A stretch of 64,000 bases of DNA from a virus (lineage: Duplodnaviria > Heunggongvirae > Uroviricota > Caudoviricetes), in IMG/VR virus record IMGVR_UViG_2724679236_000008; one strand, 5' to 3'. How positions within the stretch are numbered: the first letter of the stretch is position 1; each line of letters starts with the position of its first letter. Shown here in pieces: positions 2,979 to 61,742 of this stretch. Both the position numbers and the translations under genes were made by a program. Under the pieces are notes generated by a model. It made no database searches. It was not told the DNA's origin and saw nothing but the letters and a program-made list of their open reading frames with translations.

Positions 2979-4540
2979 ATGAAAATGACAAGTATTCAAC
3001 AACGTGCAGAGCTTCATCGTCAAATCTGGCAAATTGCTAACGATGTCAGGGGTTCGGTCGATGGATGGGATTTTAAGCAATACGTTCTGGGCGCACTTTT
3101 CTACCGTTTTATCAGCGAAAATTTTTCCAGCTATATTGAAGCCGGTGATGACAGTATCTGTTATGCGAAACTGGATGACAGCGTAATTACTGATGACATT
3201 AAAGACGATGCCATCAAAACTAAAGGCTACTTCATCTACCCAAGTCAGCTTTTCTGCAACGTAGCTGCGAAAGCAAATACCAATGACAGACTGAATGCAG
3301 ATTTAAACAGTATCTTCGTTGCTATCGAAAGTTCTGCTTACGGTTACCCTTCAGAAGCTGACATCAAAGGTTTGTTTGCTGATTTCGATACCACCAGTAA
3401 CCGCCTGGGTAACACCGTTAAGGATAAAAATGCCCGCCTGGCTGCGGTTCTGAAAGGGGTTGAAGGGTTAAAACTTGGTGACTTCAACGAACATCAGATT
3501 GACCTGTTCGGCGATGCCTATGAGTTCCTGATTTCTAACTATGCGGCGAATGCTGGTAAGTCAGGCGGCGAGTTTTTTACACCGCAGCATGTCTCTAAGC
3601 TGATTGCACAACTGGCTATGCACGGGCAGACCCACGTTAACAAAATCTACGACCCAGCCGCAGGTTCCGGTTCGCTGTTGTTACAGGCGAAAAAGCAGTT
3701 TGATGACCATATCATCGAAGAAGGCTTTTTTGGTCAGGAGATCAACCATACGACCTATAACCTGGCGCGTATGAACATGTTTTTGCACAACATCAACTAC
3801 GACAAGTTTGATATCAAGCTGGGCAATACGCTGACTGAGCCGCACTTCAGAGATGAAAAACCGTTTGATGCCATCGTTTCTAACCCGCCATATTCGGTGA
3901 AATGGATTGGCAGTGATGACCCGACGCTGATTAACGATGAACGTTTTGCCCCTGCTGGCGTTCTGGCCCCAAATCAAAAGCTGACTTCGCCTTTGTACTA
4001 CATGCGCTGAACTATCTTTCTGCCAAAGGTCGTGCTGCGATTGTCTGCTTCCCGGGTATTTTTTACCGTGGCGGCGCAGAGCAGAAAATCCGTCAGTATC
4101 TGGTCGACAATAACTATGTCGAAACCGTGATTTCACTGGCACCGAATCTGTTCTTTGGCACCACTATTGCCGTAAACATTCTGGTGCTGTCTAAACATAA
4201 AACGGATACCAAAGTTCAGTTTATTGATGCCAGCGAGCTGTTTAAAAAAGAAACTAACAACAATACCCTGACCGATGCCCATATCGAACAGATTATGCAG
4301 GTATTTGCCAGCAAGGAAGATGTTGCTCATCTGGCGAAATCTGTTGCGTTTGAGACTGTTGTCGCGAATGACTATAACCTGTCGGTGAGCAGCTATGTGG
4401 AAGCGAAAGATACTCGCGAAATTATCGATATCGCTGAGTTGAATGCAGAGCTGAAAAGCACCGTCGGCAAAATCGACCAGTTGCGCAAAGATATTGATGC
4501 GATTGTGGCTGAAATTGAAGGCTGCGAGGTGCAGAAATGA
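2979..4540 (+). pseudogene. hsdM: type I R-M methyltransferase subunit HsdM, interrupted by a 1-nt frameshift at the CCCCAAA tract (3967-3973)
   Basis: Frame 1 (2979-4010) has N6-adenine MTase motifs including NPPYSVKW, then stops. Frame at -1 continues [63 protein letters not shown] to 4540. Combined length about 520 aa. Confidence 0.85.
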
Positions 4541-5730
4541 GCGAGATGAGTTATCTGGAAAAATTGCTGGATGGGGTTGAGGTTGAGTGGTTGCCATTGG
4601 GGGAAGTCTCAGCCTTAAGAAGAGGCAGAGTTATGTCAAAGGGATATTTAACTGAAAATTTTGGCCCATATCCTGTCTATAGCTCTCAAACTGCAAATAA
4701 TGGGAAAATAGGTTCTATCAATACCTTCGATTTTGATGGCGAATATATAAGCTGGACAACAGATGGCGCAAATGCAGGCACTGTGTTCTATCGAACAGGT
4801 AAATTTTCAATAACTAATGTTTGCGGCCTGATTACATTAAAAAGTAAATACCCATTAATCTACAAATTTCTGTTTTACTGGCTAACAATAGAAGCCAAAA
4901 AACATGTTTACTCAGGAATGGGAAACCCCAAGTTAATGAGTCATCAGGTTGAAAATATACCTGTACCAATCCCCTGCCCGGATAATCCGGAAAAATCCCT
5001 TGCCATCCAGTCTGAAATCGTCCGGATTCTGGATACATTTACTGCAATTACCGCTGAGCTTAACATGCGTAAAAAACAGTACAACTACTATCGCGACCGG
5101 TTATTTAGTTTTGGTGCCCACGATGTTAAACGTCTGAAATTAGGAGAGCTATGTGTAATTGGAGACGGTTTGCATGGTACTCCAGAATATGACGCCAACG
5201 GTGATTATTTCTTTATCAATGGAAACAATTTAGGCTATCAAAAAATATCATTTAACGATAACACAAAAAAGGTTAATGATTCTATGTTTAAAAAACACGG
5301 AATTCATTTTGACCCAATAAATACTGTTTTCCTGTCAATTAATGGCACAATTGGAAATGTTTCCTTTTACAATAATGAGAAGATCGTACTCGGTAAGTCT
5401 GTGGCCTATTTTAAAATTAAATCACCTGAACTCCACACTAGATATCTTTTCTATTTCCTGCAAACCAATTACGCAAAACAGTATTTTGAAAATCAAAAAA
5501 CAGGTTCAACTATTAAAAACTTAGGTTTAAAATCGTTGAGAGCATTTGAAATACCTATCCCATCATACGATGAACAACTTTATATCGTCGCCACGATGGA
5601 TAAATTTTACAACCTGACAAACTCCATCACCGAAGGCCTTCCGCGTGAAATCGAGTTGCGCCAGAAACAATACGAATACTACCGTGATTTACTTTTCAGT
5701 TTCCCGAAACCTGAAACTGTCAGTAATTAA
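4537..5730 (+). CDS. hsdS: type I R-M specificity subunit HsdS, 397 aa, type IC-like
   Basis: Two AT-rich variable target-recognition regions separated by conserved TAEL...[15 protein letters not shown] and C-terminal [26 protein letters not shown] overlap with hsdM end. Confidence 0.9.
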
Positions 5731-5851
5731 TTGACCATTGCTACCGATCGGGCCACCTTAACACCCGGTCAGTATATAGACTATTTTTTACGCGCCGGAA
5801 GTCACTCTTAACGCCCTTCCGGCTCTTGCCAGGCGGCACAAAGGATGCGCT

Positions 5852-8800
5852 ATGACTCATCAAACACACACCATTGCTGAATCCAATAACTTTATCGTCC
5901 TTGATAAGTACATCAAAGCTGAGCAAACAAGCGACAGCTACCAGAGCGAATCGGACCTGGAACGTGAACTGATTCAGGACCTGCGGAATCAGGGTTATGA
6001 ATTTATTTCCGTAAAATCACAGTCGGCAATGCTGTCCAATGTTCGGGAACAGCTTCAGAGCCTCAATGGTGTGATGTTTAATGACAGCGAGTGGCGGCGC
6101 TTCACGGAGCAGTATCTGGACAACCCCAGCGATGGTATTCTGGATAAAACCCGTAAAATCCATATCGACTATATCTGCGACTTTATTTTTGACGACGGGC
6201 GACTTGAGAACATCTATTTGATAGATAAAAAGAATCTCATGCGCAATAAGGTGCAGATTATCCAGCAGTTTGAACAGACGGGTTCTCATGCTAACCGTTA
6301 TGACGTCACGATCCTGGTTAATGGTTTACCGCTGGTGCAAATCGAACTAAAAAAACGCGGGGTGGCGATTCGTGAGGCTTTCAACCAGATACATCGTTAC
6401 AGTAAAGAGAGTTTTAACAGCGAAAATTCCCTGTTTAAGTATCTGCAGCTGTTCGTCATTTCCAACGGCACCGATACCCGTTATTTTGCCAACACGACAA
6501 AGCGCGATAAAAACAGTTTTGACTTCACCATGAACTGGGCGAAATCAGACAACACGCTGATTAAAGACCTCAAAGACTTTACCGCCACCTTTTTCCAGAA
6601 ACATACTCTGCTGAATGTTCTGGTGAACTACAGCGTGTTTGACAGTAGTCAGACACTACTGGTGATGCGACCGTACCAGATTGCTGCCACCGAGCGCATT
6701 CTGTGGAAAATTAAGAGTTCCTTTACAGCGAAGAACTGGTCAAAACCGGAAAGCGGTGGGTATATCTGGCACACTACCGGTTCTGGTAAAACCCTCACCA
6801 GCTTTAAAGCCGCGCGTCTGGCAACAGAGCTGGACTTTATTGATAAAGTCTTCTTTGTGGTCGACAGGAAAGACCTCGATTACCAGACCATGAAGGAATA
6901 TCAGCGTTTTTCGCCAGACAGCGTCAACGGCTCGGAAAATACCGCAGGCCTTAAACGAAATCTGGATAAGGACGATAACAAAATTATCGTCACTACTATT
7001 CAGAAACTCAATAACCTGATGAAAGCAGAAAGCGACCTGCCTGTATATAATCAGCAAGTGGTGTTTATATTTGATGAATGCCACCGCAGCCAGTTTGGAG
7101 AAGCGCAGAAAAACCTGAAGAAGAAATTCAAACGCTATTATCAGTTTGGTTTTACCGGCACCCCTATTTTCCCGGAAAACGCCTTAGGCTCAGAAACAAC
7201 CGCCAGCGTATTTGGTCGTGAATTGCATTCGTATGTAATTACCGATGCGATTCGTGACGAAAAAGTGCTCAAATTCAAGGTGGACTACAACGATGTGCGG
7301 CCACAGTTTAAGTCTTTAGAGACAGAAACTGACGAGAAAAAACTAAGTGCGGCTGAAAATCAGCAGGCGTTTCTTCATCCCATGCGTATTCAGGAAATCA
7401 CGCAATATATTCTGAATAATTTCCGCCAGAAAACCCACCGTACCTTCCCTGGCTCAAAAGGTTTTAATGCTATGTTGGCAGTAAGCAGCGTGGATGCTGC
7501 AAAAGCCTATTATGCGACGTTTAAACGGTTACAAGAGGAAGCAGCTAATAAATCGGCTACCTATAAACCGCTGCGTGTTGCGACAATCTTCTCCTTTGCC
7601 GCTAATGAAGAACAAAATGCCATTGGTGAAATTTCCGATGAAACTTTTGATACCAGCGCAATGGACAGCAGTGCTAAAGAGTTTCTGGACGCTGCAATTC
7701 GTGAATATAACAGCCATTTTAAAACTAACTTCAGCACCGACAGTAACGGTTTTCAGAACTACTATCGTGATTTAGCCCAGCGGGTTAAAAATCAGGATAT
7801 CGATCTGCTAATTGTCGTGGGGATGTTTTTAACCGGCTTCGATGCTCCAACATTGAACACGCTATTCGTCGATAAAAACTTGCGTTTTCACGGCCTGATG
7901 CAGGCATTTTCCCGCACCAACCGTATTTATGATGCAACTAAAACCTTCGGTAATATCGTCACTTTCCGGGATCTGGAACGCTCAACTATTGATGCCATAA
8001 CGCTGTTTGGTGACAAAAACACCAAAAATGTGGTGTTAGAAAAGAGTTATACAGAGTATATGGAAGGCTTTACTGATGCTGCTACTGGTGAAGCTAAACG
8101 CGGCTTCATGACAGTAGTTTCAGAACTGGAACAACGGTTCCCTGACCCTACCAGTATTGAAAGTGAAAAAGAGAAGAAAGACTTCGTTAAACTGTTTGGC
8201 GAATACCTGCGTGCCGAGAACATCCTGCAAAACTATGATGAATTTGCCACGCTAAAAGCCCTGCAACGAATCGATCTTAGCGATCCTGTTGCGGTAGAAA
8301 AATTCAAAGCAGAACATTATGTGGATGATGAAAAGTTCGCTGAATTGCAAACAATTCGTCTCCCTGCTGATCGCAAGATTCAGGATTATCGTTCTGCCTA
8401 TAACGATATTCGCGACTGGCAGCGCCGTGAGAAAGAAGCTGAGAAAAAAGAGAAATCAACCACTGACTGGGATGACGTAGTTTTTGAGGTCGATTTGCTG
8501 AAGTCTCAGGAAATAAACCTGGATTATATCCTTGGACTGATTTTCGAACACAACAGACAAAATAAAGGCAAGGGCGAAATGATCGAAGAGGTCAAACGCT
8601 TAATTCGTTCAAGCCTAGGGAACCGTGCTAAAGAGGGCCTGGTGGTCGATTTTATTCAGCAAACGAACCTGGATGATTTACCGGACAAAGCCAGCATCAT
8701 TGACGCATTCTTTACGTTTGCTCAACGCGAACAGCAACGTGAAGCAGAAGCATTGATAAAAGAAGAAAATCTCAATGAAGATGCAGCAAAACGCTATATT

Positions 8801-23555: not shown

Positions 23556-23642
23556 TGGTGGAGAGTAATGGAATCGAACCATCATCGCTTGCGCAATGGG
23601 ACGGTTTTCAAGACCGTTTGAGCACCATGCTCCCTACTCTCC
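23556..23642 (-). tRNA. class II tRNA (long variable arm), anticodon UGA (Ser by anticodon)
   Basis: Hand fold: acceptor GGAGAGT/ACTCTCC, anticodon arm ACGGT-CTTGAAA-ACCGT, 17-nt variable arm, T-arm GATGG-TTCGATT-CCATT, CCA encoded; identity not confirmed. Confidence 0.65.
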
Positions 23643-54680: not shown

Positions 54681-54758
54681 TAACAACCCCGTCCGCAGGG
54701 CGGGGTGACAAGTTACTTCTCTTACAATGAGGCTTCACAACATTGATTAGGGAAAATC

Positions 54759-55193
54759 ATGTCTGACGTCTCAACAAACCTCTATAAGAGTCAGTTGTTG
54801 GACTATTACTATCAGCGGCGCGCTGAATCGTCCATAAACAAAGGCTCTCGATTTTTAATCAGCAAGGCCGTTTTCGGTACCAGTTCACTGGTTACTAAGA
54901 AAGGAGATGGTACTTATGAGATTGGAGAACTGCCAAAGGCTTTCGATCTGGCAGAGCTGACCAGTCAATTTTGCACCATCAACCTCGTGCCAACCTACTC
55001 AGGTGGGATAATTACTGTCCGGATGGACCTTGATCAAAGCCAGTTGCAGGAAGGGAAAAACTACCCATTCAACACTCTGGTTGTTCTGGATAACGAGAAC
55101 AAGCCAATCGCCATTATTTGTGTCCAGGAAGACTCGCTGTATGTGGGCAAAACATATACCGCAGTTATGGCCATAAACACGACTACAGCATAA
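54759..55193 (+). CDS. putative tail-fibre-associated protein, 144 aa
   Basis: Directly upstream of tail-fibre gene. Confidence 0.4.
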   Translation: MSDVSTNLYKSQLLDYYYQRRAESSINKGSRFLISKAVFGTSSLVTKKGDGTYEIGELPKAFDLAELTSQFCTINLVPTYSGGIITVRMDLDQSQLQEGKNYPFNTLVVLDNENKPIAIICVQEDSLYVGKTYTAVMAINTTTA

Positions 55194-55204
55194 GGATATG
55201 CTTG

Positions 55205-58123
55205 ATGAATGACGTTACAGTTGTCACATCGGTTACTTACCCATCACCCGAGTCGTTGGCTCTGGTGGCTGATGTGCAATACCACGAACCATATCTGTCA
55301 GCCGCGCTAAACCGAAAATTCAGGGGAATTGTTGACCCGGGATTTTATGCTGGTTTCTTGCCTAAGCCTGGCGGTGGGATGAACCTGTTAATCACCTCAG
55401 TGGATGGTGATAAAACCGCTGGCGCGGCGTCAGTGGATATTGGAGAATTCTACCAAGTAACTATTCAGCACCGTAAGGATATTTCTCTTGCACTTAGCGC
55501 AGGTAAGAAATATGCAATTGTGCTGAAGGGAAGATACCTCCTTGGAGAGGATACCTATCAGGTTAATACCGCGTCACATATTCATGCGGCTGAATTTATT
55601 GCCAGAACTTATACCGATTCATATCAGTTAGGAGATGGGGAGTTACTTGTTTGTACGGTAAATATCCCTGCTGGCGTATCTGCCATTACCCAGGAGATGA
55701 TTGATACATCTGAGCGTATCAACCGCACGATCGGCATTGAAATATCAGACTCTGTAACCAGCACCAGAAGTGATGTTGCGGCAAGTTCGCTGGCAGTTAA
55801 AAAAGCCTACGATCTGGCGAAAAGTAAGTATACGGCGCAGGATGCAAGCACAACGCAAAAGGGATTAGTTCAGCTCAGTAGCACAATTGACAGCGACAGC
55901 GAAACAATGGCGGCCACCCCTAAAGCCGTTAAGTCTGTAAAAGAACTGGCTGATACCAAAGCGCCAATAGAAAGCCCGAATCTGACAGGGAAACCAGGTG
56001 CCCCGACTGCGGCCCCAGGTACAAACAGTAATCAGATCGCGAATACAGCATTTGTTCATGCAGCTATAAGCGCGCTTATCAACGGCGCCCCGGGAACACT
56101 GGATACGCTGAAAGAAATTGCTGCTGCTATCAACAACGATCCGAAGTTCAGCACGACTATCAATAATGCGCTGAATCTTAAGGCTCCTTTAGCAAGCCCT
56201 GCATTCACCGGAATACCTACCGCGCCTACAGCACCGCAGGGTACAAATAATACACAGATAGCAACGACTGCTTATGTTAGGGCGGCTATTTCCGCATTGG
56301 TCGGTTCATCTCCTGAAGCTCTGGATACTCTGAATGAGTTAGCTGCGGCGCTTGGCAATGACCCGAACTTTGCGACAACCATGACCAATGCACTGGCAGG
56401 GAAACAGCCTCTTGATGCAACCTTAACCGCGCTCGCTGCCCTTGCGACTGGTGCAAATAAACTGCCTTATTTCACCGGTAAGGATACGGTAGCGCAGACT
56501 GATTTAACGTCAGTCGGTCGCGATATTCTGGCTAAAACAAGCACACTGGCCGTTATCCAATACCTTGGTTTAAGAGAACTTGGCACAAGCGGTGAAAAGA
56601 TCCCCCTGTTGAGCACGGCTAACACATGGAGTGCACGCCAGACTTTCAACGGTGGGATCACCGGGGCGCTGACAGGGAACGCCGACACCGCGACGAAATT
56701 AAAAACAGCACGGAAGATTAATAATGCCCCGTTTGACGGTTCAGCTGATATTAATATCAACACTCTGGTGTCGCGTGGTCGCGTAACGGCTCTGGAGGCG
56801 AATGCACAGGGAGCATCAGGGATTCAACTGTATGAGGCCTACAATAATGGCTATCCTTCTACCTATGGCAATGTGCTTCACCTTAAAGGTGCCACCGCTG
56901 CTGGCGAAGGTGAGTTATTCATTGGCTGGAGTGGCACGAGCGGTGCCCATGCGCCAGTACATATTCGTTCGCGGCGGGATACTGATTCTGCCAGCTGGTC
57001 AGAATGGGCACAAATTTATACGTCAAAAGACTCAGTTCCTGGTGTTAATACCAAAGGCAATCAAGACACGACAGGTAATGCTGCCACCGCCACAAGATTG
57101 CAGACGGCGCACACTATCAACGGCGTCTCGTTTGATGGTTCTGAAGATATTGAACTAACGGCGGAAGATTTAAATCTCGAACAAACAGTAGAGTTAGCTG
57201 CTGGAGCATTGCAGAAAAACCAGAACGGCGCAGATATTCCAAACAAAGATAAATTTACGCAAACAATAGGTGCTTGCCGCTCTTTTCATAGCTCTATCAG
57301 CACAGGTGCAGGAAACTGGACGACGGCGCAATTTATTGAATGGCTGGAATCTCAGTGGGCCTTCAATCATCCATACTGGCTGTGTAAATGCTCATGGTCA
57401 TACGGCAATAATAAAATTATTACTGACACCGGATGTGGACTTATTCACCTTGCGGGTTGCGTTATTGAAGTTATGGGCAATAAAGGCGCCATGACCATTC
57501 GTATAACCACACCGAGTACCTCTAGCAGTGGTGGCACCACTAATGCGCAATTTATATATATTAACCACGGTTCAGAGTATTTACCTGGCTGGCGACGTGA
57601 CTACAACACGAAAAATCAGCAGGCCGCTTTTGCTTTAGGGCAAACAGGAAGCACTGTCGGAAATGATAAAGCTGTTGGCTGGAACTGGAATAGCGGGGTA
57701 TATAACGCAAATATTGGTGGCGCATCGACATTAATCCTCCACTTCAATATGAACGCGGGTAGCTGCCCTGCTGTACAGTTCCGCGTAAATTATAAGAACG
57801 GTGGTATTTATTATCGTTCAGCGCGTGATGGTTATGGCTTCGAGGCTGACTGGTCAGAGTTTTACACCACAACCCGAAAACCTTCAGCGGCAGATGTTGG
57901 GGCATATACTAAAGCGGAATGTAATACGCGGTTTATTACAGGTATTCGATTAGGTACAAAATCATCAGCGCAAACATGGAATGGTCCTGGCTGGGGCGAT
58001 AAATCAGGTTACGTTGTTACAGGTTCCGTTAACTCAAACAAAGATGAACTTATTGATACAACACAGGCAAGGCCAGTGCAATATTGTATCAATGGCACCT
58101 GGTATAATGCGGGAAGTATTTAA
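55205..58123 (+). CDS. tail fibre protein S (constant part plus currently joined variable part Sv), about 972 aa
   Basis: ATG 55205 after AAGGA; internal tandem repeats (NTAFVHAAISALINGAPGTLDTLKE / TTAYVRAAISALVGSSPEALDTLNE); cix site at 56553-56578 inside the gene. Confidence 0.8.
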   Translation: MNDVTVVTSVTYPSPESLALVADVQYHEPYLSAALNRKFRGIVDPGFYAGFLPKPGGGMNLLITSVDGDKTAGAASVDIGEFYQVTIQHRKDISLALSAGKKYAIVLKGRYLLGEDTYQVNTASHIHAAEFIARTYTDSYQLGDGELLVCTVNIPAGVSAITQEMIDTSERINRTIGIEISDSVTSTRSDVAASSLAVKKAYDLAKSKYTAQDASTTQKGLVQLSSTIDSDSETMAATPKAVKSVKELADTKAPIESPNLTGKPGAPTAAPGTNSNQIANTAFVHAAISALINGAPGTLDTLKEIAAAINNDPKFSTTINNALNLKAPLASPAFTGIPTAPTAPQGTNNTQIATTAYVRAAISALVGSSPEALDTLNELAAALGNDPNFATTMTNALAGKQPLDATLTALAALATGANKLPYFTGKDTVAQTDLTSVGRDILAKTSTLAVIQYLGLRELGTSGEKIPLLSTANTWSARQTFNGGITGALTGNADTATKLKTARKINNAPFDGSADININTLVSRGRVTALEANAQGASGIQLYEAYNNGYPSTYGNVLHLKGATAAGEGELFIGWSGTSGAHAPVHIRSRRDTDSASWSEWAQIYTSKDSVPGVNTKGNQDTTGNAATATRLQTAHTINGVSFDGSEDIELTAEDLNLEQTVELAAGALQKNQNGADIPNKDKFTQTIGACRSFHSSISTGAGNWTTAQFIEWLESQWAFNHPYWLCKCSWSYGNNKIITDTGCGLIHLAGCVIEVMGNKGAMTIRITTPSTSSSGGTTNAQFIYINHGSEYLPGWRRDYNTKNQQAAFALGQTGSTVGNDKAVGWNWNSGVYNANIGGASTLILHFNMNAGSCPAVQFRVNYKNGGIYYRSARDGYGFEADWSEFYTTTRKPSAADVGAYTKAECNTRFITGIRLGTKSSAQTWNGPGWGDKSGYVVTGSVNSNKDELIDTTQARPVQYCINGTWYNAGSI
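56553..56578. other. cixL-like recombination site (Cin/Gin-type crossover site)
   Basis: ttatccaataccttggtttaagagaa; flanking sequence repeated in inverted orientation ending at 61050. Confidence 0.55.
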
Positions 58124-58125
58124 TT

Positions 58126-58659
58126 ATGATGCATTTAAAAAATATTAAAGCAGGAAACCCCAAAACCGTAGAACAATATGAATTAACACGACAATTTGGC
58201 GTTGTCTGGTTGTATTCTGATGACGATAGAAACTGGTATGAGGAACAGAAAAACTTTCAGGGAGATACAATAAAAATTGCTTACACTGCCGATGGAATCA
58301 TTGTGGCTGTAGATAAGGATGTATCGACAATTAATCCCGAAGGTTTAAGCGTTGTTGAGGTTCCTGATATTACAGCCAATAGGCGGGCCGATATTTCTGG
58401 TAACTGGCTGTTCAAAGATGGGGCGGTGATAAAGCGAACTTATACCGGAGAAGAACAGAGGCAACAGGCGGAAAATGAGAAGCAAAACCTGTTACAACTC
58501 GTCAGGGATAAAACTCAGCTATGGGATTCTCAGCTACGACTTGGAATTATTTCTGCTGAGAATAAACAAAAATTAACCGAGTGGATGCTCTACGCACAGA
58601 AAGTTGAATCCATAGACATCTCTATCCTACCAGTAACATTTCCCGAACAACCAGAATGA
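58126..58659 (+). CDS. tail fibre assembly protein U, 177 aa
   Basis: Downstream of S; mirrored by inverted alternative U' on reverse strand. Confidence 0.7.
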   Translation: MMHLKNIKAGNPKTVEQYELTRQFGVVWLYSDDDRNWYEEQKNFQGDTIKIAYTADGIIVAVDKDVSTINPEGLSVVEVPDITANRRADISGNWLFKDGAVIKRTYTGEEQRQQAENEKQNLLQLVRDKTQLWDSQLRLGIISAENKQKLTEWMLYAQKVESIDISILPVTFPEQPE

Positions 58660-58686
58660 GAGAAGGCCCGCATCGGGCCTTAATTT

Positions 58687-59100
58687 TTACTCTGGTTTTT
58701 GTGGCCATTCTGGCTTTGCCGTATCCACGCGGCTGAGCAGAACGCTGTAACGTTCCCAGGATTCCAGTTGGCTACGCTCCTCATCCGTCGCCATATTCAG
58801 TCTGACAGCTCGTTCCAGTGGCAATATGATAGACTCCGCTTCTGTCAGAAGCTTAGATTTTTTCCTCTCCGCTTGCCAGATTAAGTCAGCTTGGGTTGGT
58901 GGTTCTGGTTCCATTAAAACTGGTTGACCGTATTCATTTGAATTGATTTTTTTACCTTCTGATTGTTTATCCAGGAGATAATGATACCAGCGGTCTGATA
59001 TTTCAATAGCATCATCAGGCCATGCACCATTAATATCATAATCGCTTTTTAGATTATCATCATAAAAACCATTTGTTGACGGGCTGTAATAAATTGTCAT
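58687..59100 (-). CDS. alternative tail fibre assembly protein U' (inverted copy), 137 aa
   Basis: Reverse-strand ORF inside the invertible segment. Confidence 0.65.
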
Positions 59101-59101
59101 A

Positions 59102-61006
59102 TTAGTAACCTATAGCTGTCCAGTACATATTGCCGTTACCCTCACTGTTAAATTTTGTTCCGGTTCTGGATAGTGAGTTAACAGCAATGCTGTAGTCAAA
59201 ACGACCATGCGCGTTAGTGATTGTTATGCTTGTACAGGCAGAGGGAAAAGCTATTGGAAATGTTAACCCTGCTCCAGCATTAGAAATATATCCCCACTGC
59301 GTAATAATTCCTGTAGAGACATCTTTATGCCAGCCATTCGCCGCTTTGAACGCGGTATTTTTAGCCTGATAACGGGAGTCAAAATTACCGTAATCTGACG
59401 GGTTAACACGCCCACTAATATTCAGTAGTTTATTACTTTGAATACTTCCACTCGTAAAGCGGAAAACATGGGCATTGTTAGCATAAACATCAAGAACACC
59501 ATCGCCATTTTGCTTTAAACCAGTATCACCATCACCCAGAACAATGGAGTTACCTCCTAAAGCGTTTGCCGTTCTTATACCAAGTGCGCCGTTCAACTGG
59601 CCGCCAGATAACGGCAATGCCCCAACTTCAGCGGCAGTAGGTCTAATATGCGAACTGTAAATTACATAAACCGTTCCATCAGTCAGGCCTGTCGGTTTAT
59701 TCGCTGTATAAGTTGGTGATGTATGAATTTGTACAGTGGCATCCTTTGTATAATCCCACTGGATATTAACACCCGTGGCGTAATTACCTATTTCTACATA
59801 AATGTCATAGGTATCACCGGATGTATTCACCCATGCAAAATTAGTAAATCCTGATGATGTCCGCCGCCATAATGCACCAGTGATGCCTTTAGGGTTTCCA
59901 TTGCCAGCACGTAAAACAAGTTCAGATATACCCGCCTGCTGCGGGGAACCGACATTATATCCAGCACCACCAATCAGGCTTACATAAACCACGGAACTGG
60001 CCTGTGGCATAGTTACAGTCGCCAGTTTGAACCATCCTGCACCGCCATTAAAGGATATGGTTGTTGAATTTGTTGTCCCGATGTTGCGCAGGAATAATTT
60101 TTTATCAGGAATATCTGCACCGTTCTGGTTTTTCTGCAATGCTCCAGCAGCTAACTCTACTGTTTGTTCGAGATTTAAATCTTCCGCCGTTAGTTCAATG
60201 TCTTCAGAACCATCAAACGAGACGCCGTTGATAGTACATGCTGTCTGCAACTTGGTCGCTGTCGCTGCATTACCGGTAGTGTCTTGATTACCTTTTGTAT
60301 TCACACCAGGCAAATCTATATCGGCTGAACCATCAAAGGATACACCACCTATGTTTATTGAACTTGCTAATTTCGTTGCTGTTGCTGCATTTCCTGAAAG
60401 GCTTGAAACAAACTGATGTGAGCAGTAATAACCACGTCCATTTTTAAAATCCAGAATGGTTTGAGTATTTGTACTTTCTGCTACTGGATCTGTGGCCCCC
60501 CACTTATAGGTGGCTTGACCAACGGTATAGTCAGTAGTTGGAACAATTACGTTCAAGCCCTCCTCAGCAAATATCTTGATAGGAAATGCTCTGGCTTCAA
60601 CGTAAAATACACTACACAAATCGTCATCTTTCACACTTGAAATAATCGAGTGTATAGCTCGCTCAGCAGTAGAATATATTGAGAAAAAACCAGCCGCATA
60701 TGAACCGCGATCAGACCAACCGCCAGGCATAACAAACCCATTAAATTCACAATTATTCATGGCGTATCCGCCAGCTGAGGAATAAGTAGTTATCACAACT
60801 CGTGAGGCTAATTCATCGGTACTGCCTCCAGATCGGCGAAAGACTATAGGATACCACTTACCGCTTACTGCATTTGCAGGCGCTGAAAAAGTGTATTTTC
60901 GCATCCCTTTTTTATTGTCTATTTCGCTTTTGCTGTAAACGTCCAGATCTTTAGGAGTCNNNNNNNNNNAAGTCTGGCGTGCACTCCATGTGTTAGCCGT
61001 GCTCAA
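59102..61006 (-). CDS. alternative tail-fibre variable segment Sv' (no independent start; joined to S constant part after inversion); contains assembly gap
   Basis: N-terminal [11 protein letters not shown] matches S residues at 56600-56640; internal [18 protein letters not shown]...[24 protein letters not shown] block matches S at 57040-57240; 10 N at 60960-60969. Confidence 0.6.
60960..60969. other. assembly gap (10 N) inside the inverted repeat
   Basis: Run of n characters. Confidence 1.
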
Positions 61007-61036
61007 CAGGGGGATCTTTTCACCGCTTGTGCCAAG

Positions 61037-61062
61037 TTCTCTTAAACCAAGGTTTAGGATTG
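61037..61062. other. cixR-like recombination site
   Basis: ttctcttaaaccaaggtttaggattg; left half is the reverse complement of the cixL right half; overlaps cin 3' end. Confidence 0.55.
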
Positions 61063-61614
61063 AAATGATGACGCAGGAAACTTTTTATAAAGCGTGGAAA
61101 CAGCAACATCATAGATGATTGCAACCTGCTTACGGGGGATGCCATTCTCCAGCAATCGACGCATTTGCTGCCATGTTTCTTCCGGGTATTTAGGTCTGCG
61201 GCCTCCTATTCGACCTTCTGCGCGAGCTGCATCAAGTCCAGCGCGTGTACGTTCAACGATAAGCTCGCGTTCCATTTCTGCCAGTGCCCCCATTACGTGA
61301 AAGAAAAAGCGCCCCATTGGTGTACTGGTGTCGATGGAGTCAGTGAGACTCCGGAAGTTAATTCCTCTGTCACGTAGCTCTTCCACCAGCACAACCAAGT
61401 GACGCATGCTGCGCCCAAGGCGATCTAACTTCCATACGATCAGGGTGTCACCTCTGGAAAGCATACGCAAAACCTTTTTTAGCCCTGGGCGTTCAGCCTT
61501 TTTGCCGCTCGCCTTATCCTCAAAAATTAGCTCACATCCTGCGCTTTCAAGAGCGTTTCGTTGTAAAGCAGTGTTTTGTTCATTTGTTGATACGCGTACA
61601 TAGCCTATTAGCAT
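61054..61614 (-). CDS. cin: site-specific DNA invertase Cin (serine recombinase, Hin/Gin family), 186 aa
   Basis: MLIGYVRVSTNEQ catalytic serine region, resolvase core and C-terminal HTH. Confidence 0.95.
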   Translation of the reverse strand: MLIGYVRVSTNEQNTALQRNALESAGCELIFEDKASGKKAERPGLKKVLRMLSRGDTLIVWKLDRLGRSMRHLVVLVEELRDRGINFRSLTDSIDTSTPMGRFFFHVMGALAEMERELIVERTRAGLDAARAEGRIGGRRPKYPEETWQQMRRLLENGIPRKQVAIIYDVAVSTLYKKFPASSFQS

Positions 61615-61742
61615 ATTTTCTGCTCACTATCGTTATTTATAGCAAGCTGCGGATTTTAATTAACAAAAAACCAGTATGTGTGGAAATCACAAAGTACATA
61701 CCGTTTCCCAATGAGATTTAATTCACTATTGAGGAAATAGTT

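Follow-up and report, generated by a model that had tools for sequence, protein, structure and literature searches.

Anatomy of a probable Cin-invertible tail-fibre segment with interrupted inverted repeats in a P1-like phage-plasmid of Escherichia albertii

A tail-fibre region was analysed in a stretch of viral DNA of 64,000 nucleotides (nt) (Caudoviricetes; IMG/VR record IMGVR_UViG_2724679236_000008). This whole stretch is called the window below, and positions are counted from its first letter. The region contains a DNA inversion system like that of phage P1: a segment bounded by two cix sites, with cin, the gene of a serine DNA invertase, beside it. The open reading frames (ORFs) follow one another in the order R, S and U on the plus strand, then U', Sv' and cin on the minus strand, then holin and lysis genes. 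A first-pass annotation, made from the letters of the window alone, had recognised a Cin-invertible tail-fibre segment and had suspected either a faulty assembly or an arrangement of more than two states. The genes and sites were as follows.

56553-56578; cix site on the side of Sc, TTATCCAATACCTTGGTTTAAGAGAA; identical to P1 cixR, central TT at 56565-56566
61037-61062; cix site on the side of cin, TTCTCTTAAACCAAGGTTTAGGATTG; identical to P1 cixL, central AA, overlaps the 3' end of cin
61054-61614; minus strand; cin, serine DNA invertase; Pfam Resolvase (5e-51) and HTH_7 (2e-17), identical to P1 Cin at 184 of 186 residues
61525-61596; minus strand; recombinational enhancer in the 5' part of cin; all 72 nt are those of the annotated P1 enhancer (NC_005856), an identity of sequence only, Fis binding being taken from P1
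55205-58123; plus strand; S, tail-fibre gene in its current expressed form (Sc + Sv), 972 amino acids (aa); Pfam Phage_fiber_2 and gp37_C, start codon as annotated in the plasmid pEA4_97 (described below)
55205-56565; plus strand; Sc, constant part of S
56566-58123; plus strand; Sv, variable part of S
57248-58123; plus strand; distal receptor-binding part of Sv (type Y), homologue of Mu S' and P1 Sv'; matches Protein Data Bank (PDB) entry 8JU3 and, at the DNA level, Mu S'/U' and P1 Sv'/U'
58126-58659; plus strand; U, predicted assembly chaperone for Sv; Pfam Caudo_TAP (E = 3.8e-34)
58687-59100; minus strand; U', predicted assembly chaperone for Sv', 137 aa; Pfam Caudo_TAP (E = 4e-30)
59102-60100; minus strand; distal receptor-binding part of Sv' (type X), currently silent; Pfam Gp53-like_C (E = 1.4e-12), a weak gp37_trimer match and PDB matches to R-pyocin fibres
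54710-54728; plus strand; equivalent of LPs, the late promoter driving the R-S-U operon; 18 of 19 positions as in the annotated P1 LPs
54759-55193; plus strand; R, tail-fibre structure or assembly gene; an ORF at the same position as R of P1 and P7 and as an annotated coding sequence of pEA4_97

The two cix sites, each of 26 base pairs (bp), were those placed at 56553 and 61037 by the first-pass annotation. They are inverted relative to each other (core TT versus AA) and delimit a segment of 4,586 bp once a short assembly gap has been filled from a closed relative. The sequence TTCTCTTAAACCAAGGTTTAGGATTG was unique in the window at up to three mismatches, with 0 occurrences expected from shuffles. 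A half-site scan was run over the whole gap-filled window. Both cix sites scored 24/24, the next best position scored 16/24 and shuffled sequence reached 16-18, so that no third cix-like site rose above the shuffled background in the 64 kilobases (kb). Because a third site is missing, the system is classed as a two-state Cin switch and not as a Min-type shufflon. The presence of Sv, U, U' and Sv' between the sites, as originally proposed, was borne out by the ORFs and their Pfam domains. The segment holds two fibre C-termini in opposite orientation together with the chaperone of each, and Sc and LPs lie outside it; Sv' runs on the minus strand from 59102 through the gap up to cix. The layout R-Sc / Sv-U / U'-Sv' / cin, followed by lydC, lydA and lydB, is that of P1. 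Taken together, the cix sites, Cin, the enhancer and this layout argue for a host-range switch of the C-segment type, carried by a P1-like (IncY) phage-plasmid of E. albertii (probability about 0.93). Two-state switching of tail-fibre tips by Cin is well known, as is the plasmid family concerned, and closed sequences identical to this one are public.

Over its distal 320 residues, the expressed Sv matched the solved structure 8JU3 ('Tail fiber protein S, S''; E = 6e-180), and at the DNA level Sv and U matched S'/U' of Mu and Sv'/U' of P1. The labels Sv and Sv' used here, which follow the first-pass annotation, are thus positional only, because the expressed end is the homologue of P1 Sv' and Mu S'. 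In P1 terms, the window is in the state expressing the S'-type fibre. The silent tip, with its C-terminal Gp53-like_C domain and its likeness to R-pyocin fibres in Pfam and PDB comparisons, and its 137-aa chaperone are not the S and U of P1. Between the convergent U and U' genes, a G+C-rich hairpin, aaggcccgcatcgggcctt, followed by T's was observed at 58660-58686. It looks like a two-way terminator that would close whichever cassette is expressed.

The inverted repeats that accompany the cix sites are interrupted. The repeats, the modules between them and the gap were delimited as follows.

56555-56709; outer inverted repeat, left arm, 155 nt; encodes S residues 454-502, 98.7% identical to the gap-filled right arm
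60970-61060; outer inverted repeat, visible part of the right arm
56710-57037; plus strand; module A, proximal part of Sv; collinear with the middle of the 0.6-kb repeat of P1
57038-57247; block 2, inner inverted repeat, left arm; encodes a 25-residue fibre-shaft motif and a linker
60101-60310; block 2, inner inverted repeat, right arm
60311-60959 and 47 nt in the gap; minus strand; module B, proximal part of Sv', about 650 nt; unrelated to module A, with one extra copy of the fibre-shaft motif
60960-60969; 10-N assembly gap, apparently in place of about 112 nt (module B, 47 nt; outer repeat, 65 nt)

The repeat finder returned the outer arms as 56555-56645 and 60970-61060 (91 nt visible, 98% complementary) and the arms of block 2 as 210 nt, 90% complementary. 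Comparison of the window with its own reverse complement gave E = 1.6e-76 for each inverted block. The two blocks of inverted homology reported earlier are therefore present, and so are the non-homologous spacers of unequal length, which span about 330 nt in the Sv arm and, with the gap filled, about 700 nt in the Sv' arm. Beyond the gap-filled outer repeat of 155 nt, a weak similarity extends for about 45 nt. At the protein level, both blocks are anchored on the shaft motif NA(A/D)TA.(K/R)L...I.G..FDGS.DI, of which a motif scan found two copies in Sv and three in Sv'. Module B (Sv' residues ~517-700) had no sequence match in Pfam or PDB. At at least 98% identity it adjoins cin widely, in P1-like plasmids of Escherichia coli, E. 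albertii and Salmonella.

Comparison with P1 accounts for the interruption. P1 has one contiguous inverted repeat of 623 nt, whereas the window repeats only its first 155 and last ~210 nt. The Sv arm (56555-57300) aligned over its full length with each arm of the P1 repeat at 86-88%, collinear over 636-746 nt. The Sv' arm matched the P1 repeat only at its own positions 1-199 and 853-1057 (~205 nt), and its positions 199-853 had no match to P1. The 0.6-kb repeat of P1 can thus be read as three parts: a stretch shared next to cix, shaft module A and block 2. Only the first and third parts are left as inverted homology in the window because the Sv' arm carries the longer module B and not module A. 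A related pattern is found in phage P7 (AF503408 / NC_050152), which shares the cix sites and the 155-nt outer repeat and has a separate second inverted block of 123 nt (90%), homologous to block 2, behind spacers of 350 and 67 nt. P7 differs in that its Sv' arm almost lacks a proximal module (the 67-nt spacer) and in its distal tips; DNA identity is ~83% over the region, with 64% of the region covered. The interrupted repeat occurs in closed genomes and, in variant form, in P7, and it is genuine. The first-pass annotation had held that a simple switch would show contiguous 0.6-kb inverted repeats and a single two-state inversion. The repeats found were instead 155 nt and a separate block of 210 nt, as in P7, since that expectation was based on P1 alone; the two-state inversion was found, in closed relatives. 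A contiguous 0.6-kb repeat is a feature of P1 itself and not of the family, and membership in the Cin-type switches is unaffected.

Both orientations of the segment were found among natural relatives. Over 56000-61700, pEA4_97, whose sisters are other pEA plasmids and p06-3542, is identical to the window apart from one base and the gap, and it has the orientation of the window. In p06-3542 and pEA50_2 the whole segment is opposite relative to Sc and cin, as expected of a Cin flip, with the breakpoints of homology inside the 155-nt repeat. A query spanning the Sc-Sv junction was fully covered in 144 closed plasmid records, and a constructed Sc-Sv' junction was fully covered in 12 plasmid records. 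The other records retrieved with the Sc-Sv' query break exactly at cix (query position 306), and their Sv' part adjoins cin. Natural relatives thus differ by a plain flip of the whole segment with breakpoints at cix.

Variation of other kinds was also observed in these plasmids. At window position 59938, pEA4_97 has A instead of G, which changes CAG to TAG in the silent Sv'; the frame is broken there and intact in the window. In pEA50_2 (NZ_CP117572.1), which is 99.7% identical, the Cin flip is accompanied by an internal rearrangement at positions 4652-5892 of the retrieved stretch. One piece, spanning the 3' end of U, then U', then the end of Sv', is inverted. There is also an inverted duplication of 219 nt and a deletion of 235 nt. 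At the junctions of this rearrangement neither cix-like sequence nor useful homology was found, and 9 nt of filler were present. The rearrangement reflects an illegitimate event or else an artefact of assembly. The sister plasmid pEA36_1 of E. albertii (NZ_CP117591.1) has the same Sv, U and U' and a different Sv' cassette at positions 6102-8239 of the retrieved stretch, annotated as a pyocin knob domain protein and a hypothetical protein.

The alternative that survives best is a nested switch of four states, in which the Cin flip would be combined with inversion by homologous recombination between the two copies of block 2. Modules A and B would then be re-paired with the tips Y + U and X + U', and the inner block (57038-57247 / 60101-60310) would serve as a second, Cin-independent inversion joint, yielding four fibre types from two cassettes. 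Chimeric queries were built from the window by joining module A to the tip of Sv' (A-X) and module B to the tip of Sv (B-Y). Both were complete in a single record, the diverged plasmid NZ_CP150020.1 of E. coli 2024CK-00188. This plasmid is 99.3-99.5% identical to pS51_2, which has the pairing of the window, and to pCFS3292-3, which is a Cin flip of pS51_2, so that three of the four possible states are represented among near-identical plasmids. Relative to pS51_2, the inversion in NZ_CP150020.1 is confined to what lies between its two copies of block 2 (positions 3761-3883 and 6852-6937 of the retrieved stretch), and both reciprocal chimeric fibre ORFs are intact. The crossover fell within ~60 nt common to both arms, upstream of the tip-specific markers, and one marker looks converted, which fits homologous rather than site-specific recombination. 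The half-site scan also covered NZ_CP150020.1, and there too the two known cix sites alone stood out. A quasi-cix sequence scoring 17/24 was noted at position 3874 of the NZ_CP150020.1 stretch, at the boundary of block 2 and X. It was discarded, as its score is within the shuffled range and it is not the crossover point, lying 3' of X-specific markers that travel with X.

Against a four-state switch, the B-Y junction was found in one record of 72,556 plasmids (PLSDB) and one of 5,426 complete E. coli genomes, in both cases NZ_CP150020.1, which would make the inversion at best rare and not a regulated switch. No E. albertii record, and hence none of the window's E. albertii relatives, matched the chimeric queries. 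Within block 2, the best half-site score for cix was 14/24, below the shuffled range of 16-18. A misoriented piece of 3 kb between repeats of 90-120 nt is also a plausible assembly error, and the inner inversion of NZ_CP150020.1 is either a rare event or the orientation error of one assembly. We therefore consider it unlikely that block 2 acts, even occasionally, as a second inversion joint; this possibility is the sole mildly new point of the analysis. The earlier suggestion of something more complex than a simple two-state switch is upheld only weakly and indirectly, through this one plasmid, the window itself having the structure of a plain Cin switch. In many other plasmids, the partner changes precisely where block 2 begins or ends. 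These changes, together with the other Sv' cassette of pEA36_1, suggest that the block is a joint at which fibre modules are re-assorted on an evolutionary time scale.

Mis-assembly across the repeat, the first of the two explanations offered in the first-pass annotation, would mean that the contigs flanking the Ns had been wrongly joined or oriented and that the interrupted repeats are an artefact. The repeat arm of an invertible segment is a typical place for short-read assembly to fail, and 60960-60969, the sole run of Ns in the window, borders directly on the outer block's right arm. The gap had been placed exactly at a block edge; it does touch the arm, one base to the left of the position implied. 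It lies at the edge trivially, because the gap truncates the arm. The stretch 56000-61700 was compared with plasmid records by megablast, and five closed E. albertii plasmids were retrieved at 96.6-100% identity. Each matched in two pieces, with a span 100-102 nt longer than the query, which sets the gap at 110-112 nt. Both flanks were collinear and in the same orientation in all five, which were closed independently. In pEA4_97 (NZ_CP117679.1, IncY, 97 kb) both flanks are identical to the window bar one substitution, and 112 nt stand in place of the 10 Ns (AACGTAATGTCAGCC...CCACCGTTGA). Filling the gap with them restored Sc + Sv' as an intact, in-frame product of 1136 aa, the same length as the annotated S protein of p06-3542, which expresses that end. 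The gapped frame also looks continuous, by coincidence, because 10 and 112 leave the same remainder (1) on division by 3. As the interrupted repeat is moreover unchanged in the closed records, mis-assembly is very unlikely. The gap is an unassembled piece of the repeat arm; the contigs beside it are not misjoined, and it conceals no further cassette.

The other explanation, a multi-cassette arrangement in which Cin would act at several crossover sites inside the segment and shuffle more than two cassettes, a further one being concealed by the gap, as in Min of p15B or a shufflon, is superficially suggested by two inverted blocks with unequal spacers, which resemble nested invertible segments, and by the existence of P1-like plasmids with Min-type invertases (PMC6906374, Table 1), but it is extremely improbable given the two cix sites above background, the mere two fibre tips and two chaperones, a gap of 112 nt, an invertase that is P1 Cin and relatives that show a plain flip of the whole segment.

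The window may be set beside two further inversion systems. Min of p15B, a system associated with Sandmeier and colleagues (1990), is reportedly carried by a P1-related plasmid prophage, and is said to use a serine invertase of the same family, to have tail-fibre ends as its cargo and to contain conserved sequence boxes between the variable parts. It differs in having six crossover sites and several overlapping invertible segments, whereas the window has two sites and one segment. The G segment of Mu, inverted by Gin at gix, follows the same principle, and the distal part of Sv together with U has ~80% DNA identity to Mu S'/U'. The recombinase (Gin) and the constant part of the fibre are different in Mu. 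The Mu repeats are short (34 bp).

In P1 the action of the enhancer is Fis-dependent. By analogy, in the C-segment switch proposed for the window, Cin encoded beside the segment would bind the two inverted 26-bp cix sites and, with the enhancer within cin, would exchange strands at the central dinucleotide and flip the 4,586-bp segment. Transcription from LPs through R and Sc would continue into whichever variable end faces it and into the matching chaperone. The state of the window would give Sv and U; after inversion, Sv' and U' would be expressed. Lysogens would release particles of either of two host ranges. Inversion by Cin at cix and the host-range switch have been described for P1 (bioRxiv 10.1101/2022.07.24.501295; PMC6906374). 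The change of host range, like the Cin/Fis mechanism, would be carried over here from the biology of P1. Some points weigh against this reading. The evidence for inversion is comparative, coming from relatives rather than from the strain itself. We infer the content of the gap from identical relatives and not from the reads of its own assembly. The dependence on the enhancer and Fis, and the receptor specificity of either fibre, would be those of P1 and Mu.

Elsewhere in the backbone, two tRNA genes were found on the minus strand, a tRNA-Met (cat) at 22519-22594 and an 87-nt tRNA-Ser (tga) at 23556-23642.

The practical value is modest. The 10 Ns can be filled confidently, and the annotation should show an intact silent fibre gene, with a product of 1136 aa once it is joined to Sc. 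No new question about inversion systems is opened by this region. The analysis also accounts for the interrupted repeats of C-segments in the P1 family. The proximal shaft module within the 0.6-kb repeat of P1 is exchangeable independently, the two arms carrying A and A in P1, A and none in P7, and A and B here. The block at the module boundary marks a site of re-assortment of these fibres, which is useful for engineering the host range of P1.

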